Shown: one piece after another, positions 385 through 47,618 of the stretch
Layout of the letters: the number at the start of each line of letters is the position of its first letter
Numbering within the stretch: the first letter of the stretch is position 1
From: an uncultured Victivallales bacterium
GTDB lineage: Bacteria; Verrucomicrobiota; Kiritimatiellia; UBA8416; CAYSRM01
Assembly (NCBI GenBank): GCA_964433435.1
Contig: CAYSRM010000001.1
Span: 1,941 to 65,940, forward strand
Reading direction: 5' to 3'
DNA length: 64,000 bases
The notes under the pieces: model-generated
The model's database searches: none
The model's input: the letters and a program-made list of their open reading frames with translations, nothing else
Told to the model about the DNA's origin: nothing
Program-made: the position numbers and the translations under genes

Positions 385-407
385 CATGGGGAAGGGGTCA
401 TTGGCAG

Positions 408-705
408 CGCCCGACGAAGCTACCTGAGCGAAGGCGGGTCATTGGTCATTAGTCATTGGTTATTGGTGGGGAGGGGAGAATATTCAATATCCAACACGGA
501 ATTTCCAATGATGAAGGGGGAGAAGAAGAAAAACTACGAAAGGCTCGAAAGGGCGCGAAAGGGCAGCAGGTTGGAGGACAACCTGCTGTACTGGGGGAGG
601 GAGTGAAGGCGGGAAGGAATATTCAATATCCAGCCACGCCTTCGCTCGGGTAGCTTCGGCGGGCGCGGCACGGAATGTTCAATGATGAAGGAGAAGAAGC
701 GGGGA
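408..705. repeat. Mosaic intergenic repeat element, copy 1 (purA-uppS spacer), with inverted-repeat termini. Modules A-F below
   Basis: Modules: C' (inverted) at 408-435. A = CATTGGT/CATTAGT heptad run (436-470). B = GGGGAGGGG-GAATATTCAATATCC (471-495, again at 617-634). D = CACGGAAT(G)TTCAATGATGAAGGGGGAGAAGAAG (496-535, again at 668-700). E = CGAAAGG direct repeats (536-561). F = 10-bp-stem palindrome CAGCAGGTTG-gagga-CAACCTGCTG (565-589). C = CCACGCCTTCGCTCGGGTAGCTTCGGCGGGCG (634-664). Confidence 0.7.
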
Positions 706-5268: not shown

Positions 5269-5296
5269 GTGTGTGGGTTGCGACCGGGGGCCGTGT

Positions 5297-5378
5297 TATT
5301 GGTTGACAGGGGGAATGTTCAATGATCAAGGGGGAGAAGAAGAAAAGACTACGAAAGGCGCGAAAGGGCGCGAAATTG
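5297..5378. repeat. Mosaic intergenic repeat, copy 2 (rseP-ispG spacer). A-remnant plus D plus E modules
   Basis: ttattggttgacaggggGAATGTTCAATGATCAAGGGGGAGAAGAAGAAAAgaCTACGAAAGGCGCGAAAGGGCGCGAAA. Confidence 0.6.
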
Positions 5379-5408
5379 CGTTAATTTGATTCGATCGTTT
5401 TGCGATAG

Positions 5409-17664: not shown

Positions 17665-18966
17665 GTGGGCAAAATACCGATAATCAGATGGAATTTGAAG
17701 AGCCGGTCCAAAGTTATGGATCGCCTTATTAATCGTGAAACAGTCAATTGCCGGGCGGAAGAAGCGGCGGACAGAATTCTGAAGGATGTTGCGCGCCGGG
17801 GCGATGTGGCGGTGTGCGAGTATGCTGCAAAATTTGACGGGGTTTCTCTTGAGCCGGGCCAGCTTGAGTTGCCGGAGGAACAGTTAAAGAATTCTAAAGG
17901 CGCAACCGGCGGTGATTTTCGTAAGGCTGCCAGGGCCGCACACGGCAGGATTCGGGAATTTTCCCGCGCCGGGATGCGGCCGGACTGGAGCATGAAGGGT
18001 GAAGCCGGGGAGCTGATGGGCGAGAAAATGACCCCTTTTGAGAGAGTGGGGATATATGTTCCCGGTGGGACAGCGCCGCTGGCTTCAACGGTTCTTATGA
18101 CAGTCACGCTGGCCAGGGTGGCGGGCGTTCGTGAGATTGTTGTTTGCACACCTTGTGATTCCGTCGGGCGAGTTGATCCGCATATAGTTTATGCCATGAA
18201 GATATGCGGCGCAACCGAGATTTACCGTGTTGGCGGTGTTCAGGCTATAGGCATGCTTGCATACGGGACGGAATCTGTCCGGAAGGTTCAGAAAATTGCA
18301 GGCCCCGGCAATGCCTACGTAACAGCCGCAAAACGTCAGGTATACGGGCATGTGGCTTTGGATCTTGTTGCCGGCCCCAGCGAAATTGCGATTCTTGCGG
18401 ATGATTCCGCTTCTGCTGCTCACGTTGCGGCTGATCTTCTTTCGCAGGCGGAGCATGGGACAGGAGAGGAAAAGGCGCTGCTTGTTACCGATTCGGAGGA
18501 GCTGGCGCACGCGGTCAGGCGGGAGCTGGCGGAGCAGAGCGCAACATTAACTCGAAGCGGGCCGGTGGCGAGAGTTATGGAGAATGGCATGGCAGTGGCG
18601 ATTGTAAAGAATATTGAGGATGGAATGGAATTGTGTAATCGTTTTGCTCCTGAGCACTTTGAGATTCAGGTGAAGAATTCTTCAAGGTGGCTTAAGCATG
18701 TGACTGCTGCAGGCGCTGTTTTTCTTGGCCGTTGGACTCCTGAAACCGTCGGTGATTTCATAGCGGGTCCGAGCCATGTGTTGCCTACCGGCGGGGCGGC
18801 ATCGAGTTTTTCGGGGCTGACCGTCGACGATTTTCGCCGTCGGACAAGTTTTGTGAAGTACACTCGCAAGGCGTTAAAGGAGGCCATGCCGCATCTTCAG
18901 GCTTTTTCCCGCGTGGAAGGCCTTGATGCCCATGGCCGTTCTGCTGAAATCAGGTTCGAGGACTAA
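17665..18966 (+). CDS. hisD: Histidinol dehydrogenase (GTG start as listed)
   Basis: Conserved HisD core (…IYVPGGTAPLASTVLM…, …SQAEHG…, …GDF.AGPSHVLPT…). Confidence 0.93.
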   Translation: MGKIPIIRWNLKSRSKVMDRLINRETVNCRAEEAADRILKDVARRGDVAVCEYAAKFDGVSLEPGQLELPEEQLKNSKGATGGDFRKAARAAHGRIREFSRAGMRPDWSMKGEAGELMGEKMTPFERVGIYVPGGTAPLASTVLMTVTLARVAGVREIVVCTPCDSVGRVDPHIVYAMKICGATEIYRVGGVQAIGMLAYGTESVRKVQKIAGPGNAYVTAAKRQVYGHVALDLVAGPSEIAILADDSASAAHVAADLLSQAEHGTGEEKALLVTDSEELAHAVRRELAEQSATLTRSGPVARVMENGMAVAIVKNIEDGMELCNRFAPEHFEIQVKNSSRWLKHVTAAGAVFLGRWTPETVGDFIAGPSHVLPTGGAASSFSGLTVDDFRRRTSFVKYTRKALKEAMPHLQAFSRVEGLDAHGRSAEIRFED

Positions 18967-18968
18967 GC

Positions 18969-20012
18969 ATGAGAGGGTTTATACGAAAGTCTGTCAGTGA
19001 TATGGATGGGTATGTTCCCGGCGAACAGCCGAAGGATGCTGATTTTATAAAGCTCAATACCAACGAGAATCCTTATTCTCCTTCGCCGCAGGTTCAACTG
19101 GTGTTGAGGGAATTCAGCGCCGGGGAGTTGCGGCGATATCCCGATCCGGTATGTGCTGAGCTCAGGGATGCCATAGCATACATTCACAATTGCCGCATGG
19201 AGCAGGTTTTTGTGGGCAACGGGTCTGACGAGATTCTTTCGCTTTGCACAAGGGCTTTTGTGGAAAGCGGTCAGACGGTTAGTTATTTTGAACCTTCATA
19301 TTCTCTTTATCCTGTGCTGGCGGCAATTCGTGATGTTGATACTGAACCCGTTGAGCTTGGTGATGATTTTCAGTGGCGTTTTCCGGATCCGGCCAGCGCA
19401 GGTGTTTTTTTTCTGACAAATCCAAATGCTCCGACCGGGCTACTGTATCCGCGAGACCAGGTCGCAGAGTTCTGCCGGTCGTTTCAGGGTGTTGTTGTAT
19501 TGGACGAAGCCTACGTGCATTTCGCGTCATGCGACTGTATGGAGCTTGCTCTTCAGTTTGAAAATGTGGTTTGTATGAGGACCTTTTCTAAATCCTTTTC
19601 GCTTGCGGGTATCCGTGTGGGGTATGCTGTGGGCAGTCCCGCACTGATGGAAGCTTTGTTCAAGATCAAGGATTCCTACAATGTTAATGTTTTATCTCAG
19701 TCCCTTGCTCTTGCGGCTATCCGGGACATTGATTATATGCGTAGGAATGTGGAACGCATTAAGAAAAGCAGGCTGTATATGTGTGACGAGTTGAACAGTA
19801 TGGGTTTTGCTGTATTCCCTTCAGAAACAAATTTTTTATGGGTTCGTCATAATTCTTTTGAGGCAGCCGTACTTTTTGAGAAACTCAAGCAGAGCCGTAT
19901 CCTGGTGAGACATTTTGCGGGCCGAAGGACTGGTGAGTATCTGAGGATTACAGTAGGGGCGGAAGACGAAGTGGAGCAACTTGTCAGGACCCTGCGGAAG
20001 ATTTGCCGGTGA
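18969..20012 (+). CDS. hisC: Histidinol-phosphate aminotransferase
   Basis: Class II aminotransferase fold with the PLP-lysine region (…FSKSFSLAGIRVGY…). Adjacent to hisD and hisB. Confidence 0.9.
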   Translation: MRGFIRKSVSDMDGYVPGEQPKDADFIKLNTNENPYSPSPQVQLVLREFSAGELRRYPDPVCAELRDAIAYIHNCRMEQVFVGNGSDEILSLCTRAFVESGQTVSYFEPSYSLYPVLAAIRDVDTEPVELGDDFQWRFPDPASAGVFFLTNPNAPTGLLYPRDQVAEFCRSFQGVVVLDEAYVHFASCDCMELALQFENVVCMRTFSKSFSLAGIRVGYAVGSPALMEALFKIKDSYNVNVLSQSLALAAIRDIDYMRRNVERIKKSRLYMCDELNSMGFAVFPSETNFLWVRHNSFEAAVLFEKLKQSRILVRHFAGRRTGEYLRITVGAEDEVEQLVRTLRKICR

Positions 20013-20053: not shown

Positions 20054-20665
20054 ATGAGCAACACAGGAAAGCAGAGCAGATTGCGGAATGCAGAAGTGAA
20101 GCGAAAGACAAGAGAGACGGATATTCGAGTGGCACTTTCTATTGACGGGGGAGGCAAATGTGCCGTGGAAACCGGCATACCTTTCATGGACCATATGCTT
20201 GAGTTATTGGGCAGGCATTCTCTGATGGATTTAACCGTGAAGGCATCCGGCGACCTTGAGGTGGACTATCATCATACCGTTGAGGACCTTGGACTGGTCT
20301 TTGGGGAGGCTCTTGATAATGCGCTGGGTCAGCGGCGCGGGATAAAGCGGTTTGGTTGGAGCATGGTTCCGATGGATGAATCGCTTAGCAGGGTTGTGAT
20401 TGATCTTGGAGGGCGGCCGTTTCTGGTTTATGAAATGGCATGCCGGAAAAGAAAGATCAGGGACTTTGATTTGAATCTTCTTAAGGAGTTTTTCCGGGCG
20501 TTTTGCACTAATGCGAGGTTAAATCTGCATATCTGCCAGTTGTACGGCAATGAGCCGCACCATGCGCACGAATCGGTTTTCAAGGCAGTTGCCAGGGCGT
20601 TGCGGATGGCATGTGCGGTTGATGAAGATGCGTTGGGGGTTCCTTCCACGAAGGGGAAGATATAG
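20054..20665 (+). CDS. hisB: Imidazoleglycerol-phosphate dehydratase
   Basis: IGPD Mn-binding motifs (…DHHHTVEDLG…, …GNEPHHAHES…). Confidence 0.93.
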   Translation: MSNTGKQSRLRNAEVKRKTRETDIRVALSIDGGGKCAVETGIPFMDHMLELLGRHSLMDLTVKASGDLEVDYHHTVEDLGLVFGEALDNALGQRRGIKRFGWSMVPMDESLSRVVIDLGGRPFLVYEMACRKRKIRDFDLNLLKEFFRAFCTNARLNLHICQLYGNEPHHAHESVFKAVARALRMACAVDEDALGVPSTKGKI

Positions 20666-20671
20666 GGTCAT

Positions 20672-20930
20672 TTGCTCGCTGCGCGAGGGGCATTGGTCAT
20701 TGGTCATTAGTCATTGGTGGGGGAGGGGGGAATATTCAATATCCAACCACGCCTTCGCTCGGGTAGCTTCGGCGGGCGCTGCCACGCCTTCGCTCAGATA
20801 GCTTCGGCGGGCGCAGCACGGAATGGTTAATGATGAAGGGTGGGAAAGAAGAAGATTGTAACCACAGAGAGCACAGAGAAGAGGAAGAAGAGATAGACTG
20901 CGAAAAGTGCGAAAGGGCGCGAAATTGGGG
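20672..20930. repeat. Mosaic intergenic repeat, copy 3 (hisB-hisA spacer). Order is A-B-C-C-D-…-E with a tandem C duplication
   Basis: A at 20688-20718, B at 20719-20746, C at 20747-20778, second C at 20781-20816, D at 20817-20856, E-like at 20898-20927. Confidence 0.7.
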
Positions 20931-20995
20931 GAGGTTGGGATGTTTGCAGGGAGCAGGCACGAGGCATGCTCTTACGGATGGGGAGGAGAGTTGAT

Positions 20996-21718
20996 ATGTT
21001 TACGGTTATTCCGGCGATTGATATTAAAGATGGCAAATGTGTGCGTTTGATTCAGGGGAAGCCGGATGAGGTTACGGTTTATTCCGACAATCCTGTTGAC
21101 ATGGCCCTTCGGTGGGAATCTGAGGGAGCCGGAAGGCTCCATGTTGTTGATCTTGATGGGGCGTTTAAGGGCGCTGGCGTGCATAATGATATAATTGAGC
21201 AGATATGCGCGGCCATAGATATACCGGTGCAGCTTGGCGGGGGATTGAGGAGTGAAAGCGATGTACAGCGTGCGCTTGATTCCGGTGTTGACACGGCAAT
21301 TGTCGGCACCAAAGCCGCGACTGATCCTGATTCGATCAAGGGGTTGGCTGAGCGTTTTGGAGCTTCGCTTGGAGTGGGGATTGATGCCATGGACGGAGAG
21401 GTGATGGTAAAGGGATGGGCCGAGGGTTCTGGCGTCAGCGCTGTGGAAATTGCAAGGAAGATGGATGCTTATGGCGTCGGCAGGATTATATACACGGACA
21501 TATCCCGGGACGGTATGCTGACAGGTGTTAACCTTGAGGCCGTGAAAGAGCTTTGTGTTTCTGTCGGGTGTGAAGTCATTGCATCCGGCGGGGTCGGCAG
21601 TATTAAAGACTTAGACAGTCTTAAGGCATTGGAGTGTCGGAACCTTGCGGGTGTAATAGTCGGGAAAGCGCTTTATGAAGGAAAGATATCGCTGGAAAGG
21701 AGCAGCAGTCAATGTTGA
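20996..21718 (+). CDS. hisA: ProFAR isomerase HisA
   Basis: …VIPAIDIKDGKCVRL… N-terminus and (βα)8 barrel signature. Start set to the ATG at 20996 with a GGAGGAG RBS. Separated from hisB by a 330-bp repeat-bearing spacer. Confidence 0.88.
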   Translation: MFTVIPAIDIKDGKCVRLIQGKPDEVTVYSDNPVDMALRWESEGAGRLHVVDLDGAFKGAGVHNDIIEQICAAIDIPVQLGGGLRSESDVQRALDSGVDTAIVGTKAATDPDSIKGLAERFGASLGVGIDAMDGEVMVKGWAEGSGVSAVEIARKMDAYGVGRIIYTDISRDGMLTGVNLEAVKELCVSVGCEVIASGGVGSIKDLDSLKALECRNLAGVIVGKALYEGKISLERSSSQC

Positions 21719-22998
21719 TGGAGGTTCAAGAGAGTAAGCTTGAGAATGGTATCAGGGTGGTAAGTTCCCGGATACCGAGAGTGGAAAGCGTATCTATTGG
21801 TGTGTGGGTTGGTATAGGAGCGAGGCACGAGAGCGCAAAGGTTTCCGGCATAAGCCATTTTATTGAACACCTGTTGTTCAAAGGCACCGGCAGGAGGACG
21901 GCAGGGGAAATTTCCCGTTCTATAGAGGGGCGGGGCGGTTATCTGAATGCGTTTACTCAAGAGGAGAACACCTGCTATTACGCGCGTGTGCCCAGCGACA
22001 GGATATGGTCTACGCTGGACGTTCTGCTTGACATGTACACGAATGCTTCCCTTGCGGAAGCAGAGATTGAAAAAGAGAAGAACGTGATCATTGAAGAGAT
22101 AATGATGTATCGGGATCAGCCGCAACACGTGGTTCAGGACAATCTTTCTGTTGCTTTATGGAAGAACCACCCGCTGGGCCGGCCTATTATCGGAAATACT
22201 GAAAGTGTAAAAAACATTGGCCGAAGCGACGTGGTTTCTTTTCGCGAGGGCAAGTATGTTTCAGGGAATACAGTGGTTGCATTTGCCGGGTGTCTTGAAC
22301 ATGACAAATGTGTTGAGAAGGTGCGGCAGTTGACACAAGGAGCCCGGCCGGGCAGGCGTTCAACCTGCAGAAAGGCCACGCCTCAAGTTAAGCAAAAGGA
22401 GCTTATCAGGGAAAACCGCGACATTGAACAGGTTCATGCCGCCATTGGAATCAGGCTTTTCGGGTACAGGGATGAACGCCGGTATGTTTTGAAGGTTCTT
22501 AGCGCTGTTCTGGGTGAGAATATGAGTTCGCGTTTATTTCAGAGGATTCGCGAGAAGCACGGGCTTGCCTATTCGATTCATTCGGGCTCACATTTGTACA
22601 GAGACACAGGCGCTCTTATTATTGCCGGAGGGCTGGTAAGGAGCAGATATGGCAAGGCAATCGAGCTTACCGCGGGAGAATTGCGCAAGTTGAAGGACAA
22701 AGACGTATCCCGGGCGGAGCTGCGGCGGGCAAAGGATTACGCAACGGGCCAACTCAAGCTGGGCATGGAGAGCACCAGTCACCAGATGATAAGAGCTGGT
22801 GAGAATCTTCTTTCCCATGGCCGCTTTCTGGAACCGGAAGACACTATCGCTTCTATAGAGAAAGTCACTGCCGGGGACATCCGTGAGCTTGCATGCGACG
22901 TGCTTACTCCTTCGAGGATCAGCATATCGCTGGTTGGTAAGGAACTTAGCGAGATGGACGACAGGCTGACTATGGATTGTATGAGTATTCTGGGTTAG
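21712..22998 (+). CDS. M16-family zinc peptidase (pitrilysin-like)
   Basis: Inverted zinc motif HFIEHLLFKGT plus downstream Glu. 428 aa. Confidence 0.85.
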   Translation: MLMEVQESKLENGIRVVSSRIPRVESVSIGVWVGIGARHESAKVSGISHFIEHLLFKGTGRRTAGEISRSIEGRGGYLNAFTQEENTCYYARVPSDRIWSTLDVLLDMYTNASLAEAEIEKEKNVIIEEIMMYRDQPQHVVQDNLSVALWKNHPLGRPIIGNTESVKNIGRSDVVSFREGKYVSGNTVVAFAGCLEHDKCVEKVRQLTQGARPGRRSTCRKATPQVKQKELIRENRDIEQVHAAIGIRLFGYRDERRYVLKVLSAVLGENMSSRLFQRIREKHGLAYSIHSGSHLYRDTGALIIAGGLVRSRYGKAIELTAGELRKLKDKDVSRAELRRAKDYATGQLKLGMESTSHQMIRAGENLLSHGRFLEPEDTIASIEKVTAGDIRELACDVLTPSRISISLVGKELSEMDDRLTMDCMSILG

Positions 22999-23063: not shown

Positions 23064-24737
23064 ATGCGAGTCGAGCAGAGACGGCCACTTGTGGGAATAG
23101 TTCTGGCCTTTATGTCGGGTATTCTTTCTGCGCATATCGCGGGTGGAATGTTCCTGGCCACCTGGATGCCTGTGGTTGCTTGTGTATCCGCAGGTTGGCT
23201 GGCTTTTCTGGTTCAGCGCTGCTTTTCGGGGGTGCGCTGGATTGCTTCGGTGGCGTCTTGTTTCTCTATTTTTCTTTCTGTGTTTTTTTTCGGGTATGCC
23301 ATGGATCCGGGTGCAGAGAGCGCAGCCCGGCGTACGTCTATGGTTTCGATCCTGCAACTGGCGCAATCCGGCGAGACAGTCCGGATCAGCGGGACTGTTT
23401 CAAGTCATCCGGAAATGCGAGATCTGGAAGATTCAGGCCGCAGGATATGTACGTTTAAATTGTCTCCCTGCGGCCTTCAGGCCGGCGCTGAGGCCAGGAC
23501 GCTTAACGGCGTAACTATCCGGTGCAATCTTTTCGGATTGCCTGGCGCTCGAAATCCGCGTTACGGTGAGCGTTGGGAATTTACAGGAAGGCTTCGGGCG
23601 TTTCCACCGTTAAACATTGATGAAATTGAATTTCTGAAAAAAGACGGTGTTTCAAGGCATGGCAGGAAGCTTGCTCGACTTGCAGATCGTTTTTATGTCA
23701 GCGGCGGCATGAAGAGCGCCAGGTTTATGGGCAGAAGCGTCGGTTCGGGCTTGAAGCAGCGAATTTACGCAGCCAGGGCGGCAGGATCCGATTTGCTTGG
23801 CCTCGGTGTGGACGATTTTCCTCTGTCCGTATCGATCACCCGCGCTTTGCTTCTGGGTTATCGTTCCGGTGTGCCTCCGGAAGTCCGTTCCCTTTTTGCT
23901 GAGACCGGCACTTTGCATGTCTTTGCTATATCCGGCCTTCATGTGGGGATAGTCGCTGCGATTATTGTTTTCGTGATGAGCGCTGCAAAGATTCCAAGAA
24001 CTCGCTGGTTTTTTGTTCTCGCTCCTTCGCTTGGCCTTTATATTGTGTCGACCGGGGCGAGTCCAAGCGCTGTGCGCGCGGGAATTATGGCTCTTGCGTA
24101 CTTTGCCGCCTATTTGATAGGGAGGAAAGGCGACACCTTATCGGCTCTTGCGTTGTCAGCTCTTGTGATTCTGGTGATTTCGCCGGGGCGGATGACTTCG
24201 CCCGGTTTTATTTTTTCCTTTGTAGTAGTTTCGGGACTTCTTGCTATCTACCCGTTGTTTCATGTTAGGATTCGACATATTGTAAGCCCGGACCCGTTGC
24301 GGCTTGAGCCTGAGCGATGGTGGAAGCGCGCTTTGAGTGTTGGATGCGGGTATTGTCTTTCCGTAGCAGGGCTTTCGGTTTCTGCCTGGCTGGTGTCAGC
24401 TCCGCTGAGTGCGGTCTTCTTTCAAACGATAAGCCCTGTTGCATTGCTTGGAAACGTGTTTGTTACTCCTCTTACTTTTCTTATAGTGCTTACTGCTTCT
24501 CTTTCCGTCGTATGCGGTTCTGTTGCGGGATTTATTGGCAGCATATTGAATCATGCAAATGTTGCTTTCACGTCGGTATTGATATGGCTAACAGGCGGTA
24601 TTCACAGTCTTCCGCTGGCGACGTTGAAAGTTGACAGGCCGCCGATCGGGATAGTGGTCGGGTGGTATTTGCTGCTTGCTGTTGTGGTTGCTTACATGCG
24701 AGGGAAATCAGATCCTGGGCCGGTGGGGAAGCGGTAG
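23064..24737 (+). CDS. comEC: ComEC/Rec2-family competence channel. Competence domain only; no metallo-beta-lactamase domain
   Basis: DUF4131-like N-terminus plus polytopic competence domain (…GTLHVFAISGLHVGIV…). 557 aa. Confidence 0.78.
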   Translation: MRVEQRRPLVGIVLAFMSGILSAHIAGGMFLATWMPVVACVSAGWLAFLVQRCFSGVRWIASVASCFSIFLSVFFFGYAMDPGAESAARRTSMVSILQLAQSGETVRISGTVSSHPEMRDLEDSGRRICTFKLSPCGLQAGAEARTLNGVTIRCNLFGLPGARNPRYGERWEFTGRLRAFPPLNIDEIEFLKKDGVSRHGRKLARLADRFYVSGGMKSARFMGRSVGSGLKQRIYAARAAGSDLLGLGVDDFPLSVSITRALLLGYRSGVPPEVRSLFAETGTLHVFAISGLHVGIVAAIIVFVMSAAKIPRTRWFFVLAPSLGLYIVSTGASPSAVRAGIMALAYFAAYLIGRKGDTLSALALSALVILVISPGRMTSPGFIFSFVVVSGLLAIYPLFHVRIRHIVSPDPLRLEPERWWKRALSVGCGYCLSVAGLSVSAWLVSAPLSAVFFQTISPVALLGNVFVTPLTFLIVLTASLSVVCGSVAGFIGSILNHANVAFTSVLIWLTGGIHSLPLATLKVDRPPIGIVVGWYLLLAVVVAYMRGKSDPGPVGKR

Positions 24738-24747
24738 GCGGCAAGGG

Positions 24748-24813
24748 TGAGAGGGTGGCGCAGGGGGGGCGAGAGGGTGGCGCAGGGGGGGCGGAGAGGG
24801 TGGCAGTACGGGG
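24748..24813. repeat. 22-bp G-rich tandem repeat x3 between convergent comEC and the PAP2 gene
   Basis: GAGAGGGTGGCGCAGGGGGGGC twice exactly, then a degenerate third unit. The comEC ORF terminates at 24737. Confidence 0.7.
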
Positions 24814-24814
24814 G

Positions 24815-25912
24815 CTAATGATGGGGAAAGGCGGGCTGGATTTTTTCTATTAGTCCTTTGTTGTTGATGGTTACAGTTGTTTCTCTCGGGCGTCTTCGAC
24901 CTATGGCAAGGAGTTTGAAGTCCCGGCATATTCTTCTTTTTCTGTCTGAAATGAAGTCGAGAGAGAGGTTATGTTTTTTCTTTATTTCTGCCTGGAGGTC
25001 TTCGGAATCCGGGCTGATTATGATGGTTGTAAAGCTATCCCTTGTGTTTTTAAGGGCCAAGTCCAGTTGCTGCAATTTGTTTATGTTAGCTGGAGCTTTT
25101 ATGCAAGGTGCGAAGATGAGTCTGTAGTTGTGGTGCTCGGTTCGGTCTGAGGATATGGTTTTGCCTTCGATCGTGACCGCGCTGAAGGAGGGGCATTTAT
25201 TTCCTTTTTTCAAACCTGTGCTGTTGTCGGGCCAGAATCCCTGTTGCATTGCATATGGAAGCCGTTTGCGGATTGCATCTTCTATTGAGAAGTAGTGTGT
25301 TTTGATCAGGCTGGTCAGGCCGTAGCCCGTGAGCATGCCCCCGTAGACATCGGATATCCAGTGCGCTTCGTGGACCACCCGCGACAATCCTGTAAGGGTC
25401 GCAACAGCATAGAAGAGCCAGTGCATTCTGGGATAGAGTCCAGCCAGAAAGGTGGCGAAAACAAAAGCGAATGTTGTATGTCCTGAAGGGAAGCAGACAG
25501 AATGGCCCTGTTCCCACCCTGACAGGAACGGCACAAAGGTCATCTCGTAACCGCAACGGGAGGGCCTTATTCTGCCGACCGTGTGTTGTAAAATCCAGAC
25601 CAGAAAATATGAAGCTGCCAGCGAAAGAACCAGCCAGATGATGTATTTTCTTTTGTCCGGGTCGTATTCCCATAGAAACATGCATATCAGAAGAGCGCTG
25701 AAAACCACCCCGAATTGTTCAAAGAACACCCAGAAAGTGCTGTCGGTCAGGTAGTAGAAAAACATGTATGCAAAGTTTTTTTTCGGATTACGGATATGTC
25801 GGACCTGGACCATTGTTTCGGGCCCTACCTCCAACGTCTCGGTGGCCACTGTCTTGGAGTCTTTATGAAGACGCAGGCTTACGCTGTCGCCCGCTTCTTT
25901 CTTGTATTCCAT
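24815..25912 (-). CDS. PAP2 (acid phosphatase/phosphoesterase) membrane domain fused to a C-terminal peroxiredoxin/Bcp-like thioredoxin-fold domain
   Basis: PAP2 motifs K..GRIRPSR, PSGHT and SRVVHEAHWISDV. C-terminal approximately 140 aa align to a PrxQ/Bcp scaffold (…RLIFAPCIKAP…ISPDS…KKKHNLSLDFISD…CRDF.LLA…TTVTINNKGLI), but the canonical T-x-x-C peroxidatic motif is altered. Confidence 0.7.
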   Translation of the reverse strand: MEYKKEAGDSVSLRLHKDSKTVATETLEVGPETMVQVRHIRNPKKNFAYMFFYYLTDSTFWVFFEQFGVVFSALLICMFLWEYDPDKRKYIIWLVLSLAASYFLVWILQHTVGRIRPSRCGYEMTFVPFLSGWEQGHSVCFPSGHTTFAFVFATFLAGLYPRMHWLFYAVATLTGLSRVVHEAHWISDVYGGMLTGYGLTSLIKTHYFSIEDAIRKRLPYAMQQGFWPDNSTGLKKGNKCPSFSAVTIEGKTISSDRTEHHNYRLIFAPCIKAPANINKLQQLDLALKNTRDSFTTIIISPDSEDLQAEIKKKHNLSLDFISDRKRRICRDFKLLAIGRRRPRETTVTINNKGLIEKIQPAFPHH

Positions 25913-28915: not shown

Positions 28916-28927
28916 TTCCGGAGGAAT

Positions 28928-28980
28928 GCGGGTGTAGCTTAGTGGTAAAGCTTCCGCCTTCGTCCGGAGGCTACGGCGAG
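28928..28980 (+). pseudogene. 5' fragment of a tRNA-Gly-like gene. It has the acceptor 5' strand and D-arm but no T-arm or 3' acceptor strand
   Basis: The first 25 nt (gcgggtgtagcttagtggtaaagct) are identical to the intact tRNA-Gly 130 nt downstream. The following arm is degenerate and no ttcgattcc or cacccgc follows. Confidence 0.6.
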
Positions 28981-29057
28981 ACAAGCCAGCCAAAGCTCTC
29001 GCGTATGTGATTAATGATCAGGGTCTCCGGGTGTGTATGTGTGAGGTTTATATGGTT

Positions 29058-29131
29058 GCGGGTGTAGCTTAGTGGTAAAGCTCCAGCCTTCCAAGCTGGC
29101 TACGCGGGTTCGATTCCCGCCACCCGCTCCA
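29058..29131 (+). tRNA. tRNA-Gly (anticodon TCC), CCA encoded
   Basis: Manual fold: acceptor gcgggtg/cacccgc, D-arm gctt-agtggta-aagc, anticodon stem ccagc/gctgg with loop cttccaa, T-arm gcggg-ttcgatt-cccgc, discriminator t, cca. Confidence 0.9.
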
Positions 29132-47520: not shown

Positions 47521-47618
47521 GGTGAAACGGGCGTGAAAGGAATGTGGGACGTGGAACGCGGGAGCGTTGCAATCTACGGGAAGGGGGGGCAGCAGGTTGG
47601 AGAACAACCTGCTGTACT
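47521..47618. repeat. Mosaic intergenic repeat, copy 4 (rsmA-mutS spacer). Degenerate E plus the F palindrome
   Basis: …gaaacgggcgtgaaagg…ctacgggaaggggggg then CAGCAGGTTG-gagaa-CAACCTGCTG (47590-47614), 10/10 bp identical stem to 565-589. Confidence 0.55.

Follow-up and report, generated by a model that had tools for sequence, protein, structure and literature searches.

A mosaic of short interspersed repeats, probably read through, separates hisB from hisA in an uncultured Victivallales bacterium

Introduction

Four histidine biosynthesis genes lie in a row within the stretch of DNA considered here, which comprises 64,000 nucleotides of the genome assembly of an uncultured Victivallales bacterium (contig CAYSRM010000001.1; hereafter the window). 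As called with NCBIfam profiles, these are hisD (17665-18966), hisC (18969-20012), hisB (20054-20665, plus strand; imidazoleglycerol-phosphate dehydratase, NF002111, 257.9 bits with a cutoff of 231) and hisA (20996-21718, plus strand; TIGR00007, 273 bits), the last two being the upstream and downstream cistrons of the junction with which we are concerned. The gaps measure 2 nt between hisD and hisC, 41 nt between hisC and hisB, and 330 nt (20666-20995) between hisB and hisA. An earlier note on this DNA had described hisD-hisC-hisB as tightly packed, correctly for the 41-nt gap and one nucleotide too generously for the other, which it gave as 3 nt; its figure of 330 nt for the hisB-hisA spacing agrees with the gene calls. 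The note had also placed hisG, hisH, hisF and hisI outside the window, and no further his gene was found among the open reading frames (ORFs) scanned, a scan that did not extend to five short ones of 113-187 aa at 44.4-45.3 kb and 60.9-62.6 kb. Downstream, the start of an M16 peptidase gene (21712-22998) overlaps the 3' end of hisA at 21712, and a ComEC-like gene follows (23064-24737). The subject of this report is the hisB-hisA spacer and the short modules of which it is built, designated A to E, and above all module C, a stem-loop unit of 35 nt that is present here in two copies.

The hisB-hisA Spacer

The module order A-B-C-C-D-E proposed in the earlier note is real. Copies of the modules stand in two more spacers, purA|uppS and rseP|ispG, at E-values of 1e-21 to 4e-6. 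A short-word blastn search of the spacer over the 64-kb window gave matches well above chance level, of 51 nt (98% identity, E 1e-21), 59 nt (92%, E 8e-17), 57 nt (91%, E 3e-13) and 33 nt (91%, E 4e-6). Reading along the plus strand, on which all of the following features lie, a first GGTCATT heptamer stands directly behind the hisB stop (20666-20672) and is followed by a 16-nt insert (20673-20688) that interrupts the heptamer array. Module A, the (GGTCATT)n array proper, occupies 20689-20718 (Tandem Repeats Finder period 7, 4 copies; 24 nt identical to 437-460). Module B (20719-20746) consists of a G-run and the near-palindrome GGAATATTCAATATCCA, with an exact copy at 616-632, a copy with one mismatch at 477-493, and further copies in loci of other genomes (L003, L005, L133). 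The two C units, 20747-20781 (46.2 bits, E 1e-7 with the covariance model R1 described below; 32 nt identical to 635-666) and 20782-20816 (51.7 bits, E 8e-9), are arranged head-to-tail. Module D (20817-20854), which comprises CACGGAATGGTTAATGATGAAGG and a purine run, has copies at 496-517, 670-691 and 5310-5331, and is followed by X (20855-20894), a purine-rich filler of 40 nt without a second match within the window. Module E (20895-20927), made of CGAAAGGGCG-type decamer repeats, is 91% identical to 5346-5378 (E 4e-6), with a further copy at 532-560. The last 68 nt (20928-20995) form a non-repeated hisA leader with the Shine-Dalgarno sequence GGAGGAGAG. The orthologous spacer of a close relative (L002) opens with the same heptamers right behind the stop, lacks the 16-nt insert, and of the leader has only the last ~20 nt before the hisA ATG in common with the window.

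Because neither X nor the leader is repeated, repeats cover ~222 of the 330 nt, and the earlier description of the spacer as almost entirely repeat was wrong: about one third of it is unique. The tandem duplication of C, by contrast, holds as two direct copies identical at 32 of 35 positions (Tandem Repeats Finder period 35, 1.9 copies, 93% matches, score 122), with the correction that the unit measures 35 nt rather than 31; it is 34 nt long in an inverted copy within the window and in Kiritimatiellae. Two independent short-read Logan contigs of SRR15425353 (L008, L009), which carry the window's own HisB and HisA, reproduce both flanks of the spacer, and each ends inside a C unit. As these contigs confirm flanks and variants but break inside C, we take the two distinct C units to be real and the copy number of the assembly to be a lower bound.

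Two smaller features of the spacer deserve mention. A small hairpin right after the hisB stop, CTCGC-TGC-GCGAG (5 bp), is present, at 20675-20687 where the earlier note had given 20672-20688, and belongs to the insert missing from L002, but it is not convincing as a feature: its DNA fold is weak (-4.6 kcal/mol, z -1.8), 13 of 200 shuffled sequences fold equally well, and no T-run follows. An ORF of 54 codons (20830-20994) opens with the ATGATG in module D, and a single base separates its TGA stop from the ATG of hisA. It was rejected as a leader peptide or other coding ORF, as its frame is not conserved among the D-E copies and it is not His-rich; the short ORFs of other D copies read module E in different frames, which makes a conserved peptide unlikely.

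Module-Bearing Spacers Elsewhere in the Window

Two further spacers carry these modules. In the purA|uppS spacer (385-746), an inverted C unit on the minus strand (405-438; R1 37.5 bits, E 1e-5) forms a clean 34-nt insertion within a GGTCATT array, and its excision restores the heptamer register. Behind it, sequence reading and the matches within the window resolve a plus-strand mosaic at 439-706 in the order A, B, D, E, hairpin F, B, C (635-669) and D, so that the inverted copy lies ~200 nt from a forward one. The rseP|ispG spacer (5269-5408) contains D and E only (5310-5378, plus strand, from the window matches). Searched with R1, the window yields four C units and no more: 405-438 (minus strand), 635-668, 20748-20781 and 20783-20816. 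The junction between B and D thereby holds no C unit (around 495), one (635-669) or two (20747-20816), which amount to exact unit-length insertions or deletions; single C units, in either orientation, are likewise exact insertions of 34 or 35 nt.

Other repeats were observed beside these. Module F, a perfect 11-bp hairpin of 32 nt, lies at 561-592 in the purA|uppS spacer and at 47587-47618 between rsmA and mutS, with 31 of 32 positions identical, a DNA fold at z -5.9 and no T-run behind it. An exchange of sequence between spacers is suggested by 18 nt that take in the region of the purA stop codon (ATTGGTTGACATGGGGAA, 376-393) and recur with 94% identity at 5298-5315 in the rseP|ispG spacer. 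A 22-nt tandem repeat of ~2.7 copies and 65% G lies at 24745-24815, between the ComEC-like gene and a convergent minus-strand gene (24815-25912). The plus strand of the window's intergenic spacers is in general G-rich and C-poor, and the GC skew is unusually strong: it runs from +0.20 to +0.28 within 1-48 kb and, even where the minus strand bears the genes, from +0.07 to +0.13.

Structure and Covariation of Module C

Module C folds into a GC stem on the outside, two TTC triplets (sometimes TAC) that together make a symmetric internal loop, an inner stem of 3-4 bp and a loop of 4-6 nt. The outer stem is CGCC/GGCG, or CCCGCC/GGCGGG in the 34-nt form, and the two TTC triplets are not complementary. 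The ends of the unit read CCAC/CCCG... and ...GCGC(A/T/G)G, and in arrays the units abut head-to-tail without any spacer at a period of 34-35 nt. Whether the inner part is under constraint can be judged from sequences collected with a pattern that fixes the arms only: among the matches listed, 63 distinct inner sequences have a mean inner-stem length of 3.03, as against 2.50 +/- 0.08 in shuffled sequences, and none of 1000 shuffles reached so high a value. In an alignment of 40 sequences, the first free inner pair (12-18) is GC in 17, UA in 10, CG in 5, GU in 1 and something else in 7. Variants of C from Kiritimatiellae (L004) replace the inner GCT/AGC by GCC/GGC or GCG/CGC, which are compensatory changes. 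The covarying inner stem thus indicates selection on structure, and it is from these C-type sequences that R1 was built.

A C-like sequence was also observed in an unusual setting. At 28927-28990, and thus 130 nt upstream of the complete gene (29058-29131), the first 34 nt of tRNA-Gly(TCC) are present a second time, fused at a common GCCTTC to a diverged C-like CGCCTTCG-TCCGGAGGCTACGGCG (p 0.0005-0.02 in comparison with shuffles). The motif that follows it, GGCGAGACAAG, recurs inside the C array of the Kiritimatiellae locus L006. Neither ARAGORN nor Rfam calls a tRNA in the partial copy at 28927-28990. An origin of C itself from a tRNA was considered and rejected, its local alignment to tRNA-Gly being not significant (p 0.1-0.3).

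Orthologous Junctions in Related Genomes

The closest relatives found are two MAGs (metagenome-assembled genomes) whose HisA and UppS are 84-85% identical to those of the window, SRP332253_co1_180 (GCA_964543205.1, uncultured Victivallales) and co1_11 (GCA_964440205.1, uncultured Victivallaceae); on this evidence the window probably stems from a Victivallales-like bacterium of the Planctomycetes-Verrucomicrobia-Chlamydiae (PVC) group. The gene order hisC-hisB-hisA-M16 peptidase is kept in all relatives compared, and what varies is the spacer. Between hisB and hisA, where the window has 330 nt and two C units, the 208-nt spacer of co1_180 (L002) holds four C units in tandem, a partial one besides, and none of B, D, X and E, and co1_11 (L130) has 101 purine-rich nt with no C and an E-like piece only; two more distant relatives have 7 nt (L131, 76% HisA identity) and 63 nt of unrelated sequence (L132, 70%). 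Between purA and uppS, the 362 nt of the window hold one forward and one inverted C, the 222 nt of co1_180 (L133) three C units and a partial one, and co1_11 (L134) a decayed remnant only; the gap is 7 nt in a distant relative (L135, 77% UppS identity). The segment after D that adjoins uppS is conserved between the window and L133. Between rseP and ispG, the window has 140 nt and no C, co1_180 (L133) 202 nt with B, two C units and an inverted remnant, and co1_11 (L134) 81 nt and none of these.

At all three junctions, the copy number of C accordingly differs between genomes that are 84-85% identical. With orthologous hisB-hisA spacers of 7, 63, 101 and 208 nt that differ in length and in modules, the comparison demonstrates that the tight hisB-hisA junction is ancestral, and that the window's own spacer is recent and unstable in composition. 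Three operon-internal junctions (purA|uppS, rseP|ispG and hisB|hisA) have evidently been colonised by modules in the window's clade, and the hisB-hisA spacer is, judged by its orthologues, a lineage-specific, unstable and fast-changing accretion. The earlier view that an element had been inserted within the operon is borne out by this comparison, and the relatives and the window do not display what, according to the earlier note, would have refuted it, namely the same ~330 nt in conserved form with no repeat copies elsewhere.

Module C and Similar Hairpins in Other Genomes

An exact-pattern scan of representative MAGs, the source genome not being among them, located C at 7 loci in 3 MAGs of the PVC group. 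A Kiritimatiellae MAG of 65% GC (L001, L004, L006, L007) has the 34-nt C unit, loop included, in arrays of at least 4-5 copies and as single copies, with different flanks; composites of B, C and D occur at the non-syntenic loci L003 and L005; and head-to-tail arrays were seen in L001, L002, L006 and L133. All four C units of the window, as well as those read in L002, L133, L003, L005 and L007, are situated either between genes that run in the same direction or behind the end of a gene. No match to C was found in viral contigs, phage records or plasmid records, where the heptamer part alone matched two plasmids. A literature search with the C sequence and its reverse complement returned one irrelevant match, and a separate one on repeats of Victivallales or Lentisphaerae gave nothing relevant. 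In Rfam 15, the matches in the window at the gathering threshold are two tRNAs elsewhere and nothing in the spacer; at E<=10 the spacer has a single chance match to a long non-coding RNA (12.5 bits), and nothing relevant was found at the hairpins of 20 related loci.

A looser pattern, GCCTTCGC N5-10 GCTTCGGCGGGCG, matched at least 120 metagenome loci of 41-75% GC. The outer arms are fixed by this pattern and the matches listed include chance matches in GC-rich coding sequence, so that only complementarity of the inner stem counts as independent evidence. A few of the matches listed resemble ordinary terminators after a tRNA or transfer-messenger RNA on the other strand, and two unrelated hairpins with C-type arms (L017, L059) are followed by T-runs on the opposite strand. 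In the dominant family, from soil, 39 nt are inserted into a GCATGATC...GATCATGC palindrome, of which 7 copies are empty and 33 filled among the matches listed. It is not counted as homologous to C, because its preferred fold differs (GCCCGC-UUCG-GCGGGC). The idea of a C family that crosses phyla was therefore set aside as not proven by these matches, the arms being specified by the pattern, chance matches in coding sequence being present, the dominant soil family folding otherwise and some matches being ordinary terminators.

These metagenome loci yielded observations of their own. On soil contigs of ~63% GC (L043, L044, L049, L063, L124 and ~30 other loci), the palindromic repeat GCATGATCCCGAAAAGTGGGAACCGGTTTTCGGAAAAGATCATGC is often split by an exact 39-nt hairpin insert, CCCGCCTTCGCGAAGCCCGCTTCGGCGGGCGAAGGAAGG. 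Hairpins of the form CCGCC-TTC...TTC-GGCGG with covarying apical stems, which may be related to C, occur in many unrelated metagenome contigs; in four loci (L090, L109, L113, L117) such a hairpin is directly followed by CCTCCCCC-loop-GGGGGAGGTGAAG, a second hairpin that would sequester a Shine-Dalgarno-like GGAGG, and two of these loci (L090, L109) have no Rfam match. A search for a REP-associated tyrosine transposase (RAYT) gene between the inverted hairpins of L060 and L073 gave spurious high-GC ORFs only, and the analysis of ORF context at the metagenome loci was in general too noisy in high-GC DNA.

Transcription Across the Spacer

An element inside a biosynthetic operon, the earlier note reasoned, must be transcribed through or else supply a promoter or terminator, and might in this way modulate hisA. 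A supplied promoter or terminator is not supported by the features of the spacer. Neither a consensus scan nor direct reading of the sequence revealed an intrinsic terminator, that is, a hairpin with a T-run, in 20666-20995, and on the sense strand no T-run stands behind any C unit. The spacer RNA, at -95.2 kcal/mol, is not more stable than its shuffled counterparts (-99.5 +/- 4.6 kcal/mol, z +0.9). With a G fraction of 0.37 and a C fraction of 0.19, the sense RNA is G-rich and C-poor, and what is understood of Rho utilization sites makes Rho loading unlikely. No sigma-70-like promoter (-35 and -10 boxes spaced by 16-18 nt) was matched on the plus strand of the spacer, and the window, L002 and L130 have no conserved block resembling a promoter ahead of hisA. 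Relatives with 7-nt gaps, moreover, must co-transcribe hisB and hisA. Taken together, the missing terminator and promoter consensus, the 7-nt gaps of relatives and the lack of a conserved promoter-like block make read-through of the hisB-hisA spacer the simplest reading and the likeliest. Some modulation of hisA expression by the repeat element is possible by analogy with REP and BIME elements (repetitive extragenic palindromes and bacterial interspersed mosaic elements), and an effect of the REP kind on segmental mRNA stability or 3' processing would be plausible on the same grounds.

Origin and Significance of the Spacer

At a probability of about 0.6, we favor reading the hisB-hisA spacer as lineage-specific, a mosaic that is built of short interspersed intergenic repeats with C as its active core, is analogous to enterobacterial BIME/REP clusters and is read through. 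Single C units would have spread by a hairpin-dependent, REP-like process acting on single-stranded DNA, and arrays of C would then have grown and shrunk through slippage in steps of one unit or through unequal recombination. Transcription would take in the entire spacer within a hisDCBA-peptidase mRNA, while hisA would rely on a Shine-Dalgarno sequence of its own and would have lost its translational coupling to hisB. The C stem-loops would be at most modest determinants of RNA stability or processing, like REPs in operons of E. coli and Salmonella, and not promoters or terminators.

Several points weigh against this account. The read-through that it includes is an inference, and the sigma-70 consensus used for the promoter scan may not fit a PVC host. 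The C hairpin is weakly stable (DNA z -0.6 to -1.1) and is without a GTAG or CGTC tag at either end, such as marks REPs. The count of C in the source genome stands at 4 units, from 64 kb alone, and MAG assemblies break inside C, so that its copy numbers may be collapsed. No transposase-like protein or RAYT was found among the ~50 window ORFs scanned, from which five short ORFs (113-187 aa) were left out. Finally, recombination, gene conversion and slippage could yield all of the differences between relatives without any transposition.

This last consideration can be extended to the claim that nothing here is mobile, and that the modules are functionless by-products of slippage, unequal crossing-over and gene conversion among G-rich spacers under an extreme strand bias, with no dedicated enzyme. 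Two genomes carry modules at the same three syntenic junctions, as inheritance with local expansion and contraction would have it; partial C units at array edges, the 18-nt piece of the purA stop region copied into the rseP|ispG spacer, and the GC skew of +0.2 to +0.28 agree with such an origin. We nonetheless hold it to be unlikely, for it leaves poorly accounted for the clean 34-nt inverted C unit inside a heptamer array, the presence of C in the rseP|ispG spacer of L133 and not of the window, the B-C-D composites at the non-syntenic L003 and L005, the near-identical C unit with different flanks in the 65%-GC Kiritimatiellae MAG, and the covarying inner stem. A claim in the opposite direction, that C is an untagged third REP-like mini-element of Victivallales and Kiritimatiellae (~15 GC points apart) that inserts exactly as 34 or 35 nt, amplifies head-to-tail and is moved by a yet-to-be-found enzyme, is put forward just as tentatively.

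Functional explanations of the spacer fare less well. It might be a portable regulatory cassette, in which A, B and D/E act as protein-binding sites or as elements of promoters or 5' untranslated regions and give hisA, uppS and ispG a regulated start of their own, uncoupled from the genes upstream. All three mosaics do stand directly upstream of a gene in sense orientation, with D and E always proximal to the downstream start; direct heptamers and near-palindromes (B being 7-1-7-like) are typical operator shapes, and the uppS-adjoining segment after D is conserved between the window and L133. The same modules, however, precede functionally unrelated genes, are not conserved at orthologous junctions (L002 lacks B, D and E before hisA, and L130 has an E-like piece only) and are dispensed with by distant relatives that manage with 7-nt gaps, and the consensus scan matched no sigma-70-like site in the hisB-hisA spacer, which together render a cassette rather improbable. 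Alternatively, the C stem-loops, which lie 81 nt past the hisB stop, could be a terminator, attenuator or RNase-processing site that makes hisDCB and hisA-peptidase separate or differentially decaying transcripts. REPs of the E. coli malEFG and Salmonella his transport operons offer the precedent. Protection of upstream mRNA and partial termination by REPs are documented elsewhere (PMC3733652), and hairpins with the same arms in L017 and L059 do have T-runs, on the opposite strand. Each C unit, though, folds on the sense strand at only -14.5 to -15.3 kcal/mol within a spacer no more stable than its shuffles, and no unit has a sense-strand T-run behind it; a G-rich, C-poor RNA would be a poor substrate for Rho, and strong termination would be deleterious where hisA can be assigned no promoter of its own. 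As such, we regard this explanation as very doubtful.

If the reading of the spacer as a REP-like mosaic is correct, genome architecture of the REP/BIME type extends to Lentisphaerota/Kiritimatiellota-like bacteria, and the absence from C of the tag thought to direct cleavage by RAYT raises the question of how such units move. The main interest lies in an untagged, tandem-forming unit that is common to two PVC lineages, and in the copy-number series that it forms at operon junctions. One of these junctions provides a natural series of 7, 63, 101, 208 and 330 nt with 0, 2 or 4 stem-loops, which could be used in the study of polarity, mRNA stability and translational coupling. There is also a practical consequence, in that C units break short-read assemblies of these MAGs and repeat copy numbers in deposited contigs are untrustworthy.

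Comparison With Known Repeat Families

Before turning to REPs themselves, other classes of repeat can be considered. Each C unit abuts the next directly at a 35-nt period with no unique spacers, and a CRISPR array was rejected on this account; a miniature inverted-repeat transposable element was likewise rejected, as there are no terminal inverted repeats beyond the stem of C itself and the 34-nt insertion leaves at most an ambiguous GG. [quoted passage not shown] The unit of one of these, STRR2, was reportedly given as TTGGTCA by Mazel et al. in 1990, and we take the module A heptamer to be of this type, (GGTCATT)n being equal to (TTGGTCA)n, with the AGTCATT variant included. A role in transcript stability or translational coupling has been proposed for such repeats, which is a further likeness; a difference is that module A has only 4-5 units and is interrupted by other modules. 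In a blastn search of the spacer against plasmids, module A alone was matched, by an array between two co-directional permease genes of a Nostoc plasmid and by a Rhizobium plasmid, the arrays lying at 20689-20718 and 437-467 in the window and at 1490-1575 and 1176-1232 in the plasmid loci L136 and L137, respectively. Since Rhizobium has the array too, the likeness of module A to STRRs, 7-bp intergenic tandem repeats without known function (PMC2670836), may be convergent. The mosaic intergenic regions of Neisseria, with their dRS3/CGTC-1 clusters, are similar to the window's spacers in that several unrelated families of short repeats are interleaved, and differ in sequence, in the CGTC tag of their units and in serving as targets of phages or insertion sequences (PMC3733652).

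C would resemble the REPIN-RAYT systems of Pseudomonas in that both consist of short palindromic units which act as non-autonomous insertions and are retained within a lineage. The REPINs of these systems, described reportedly by Bertels and Rainey in 2011, are inverted doublets, whereas the window has one inverted C only, ~200 nt from a forward copy.

The closest parallel is with REPs and BIMEs. REPs are stem-loops of 20-40 bp tagged by an unpaired GTAG or CGTC, and in those of the E. coli type (GTAG-3) the stem is set apart from a self-complementary loop, flanked by GC, by di- or trinucleotides that are not complementary (Di Nocera et al. 2013, PMC3733652). They lie mainly between unidirectional or convergent ORFs, and some sit inside other palindromes, are tandemly reiterated or are interleaved with other repeats, head-to-tail dimers being rare (PMC3733652). 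Copy numbers are typically >100 per genome, and BIMEs are described as REPs regularly spaced in alternating orientation (PMC2817692). The 34/35-nt unit of C, able to form a stem-loop, falls within the 20-40 nt of the enterobacterial GTAG-3 elements, and its compound hairpin has the same architecture of outer stem, non-complementary triplets and GC-flanked self-complementary inner part. It is extragenic, between unidirectional genes and inside operons, as REPs are. Like the components of BIMEs, it forms mosaics with modules A, B, D, E and F, which vary in order and number, at three sites of the window and in L002, L003, L005 and L133; copy number that varies between strains, tandem reiteration and nesting inside other repeats are further common traits. 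The differences are as telling. GTAG occurs only inside the loop of some C units (CGGGTAGC), and the Kiritimatiellae flanks have no terminal tag either; arrays of C run head-to-tail, where BIMEs alternate in orientation; for C, no RAYT gene is known; and its host is a bacterium of the PVC group, in which the GTAG-3 family is not known to have been described, Lentisphaerae being outside the coverage of the survey cited above (PMC3733652). Although size, architecture, location and mosaic context are common to both, C lacks the tag and forms head-to-tail arrays, and we consequently take it to work in the manner of a REP/BIME element, yet to be a variant of that theme and no member of the tagged families.

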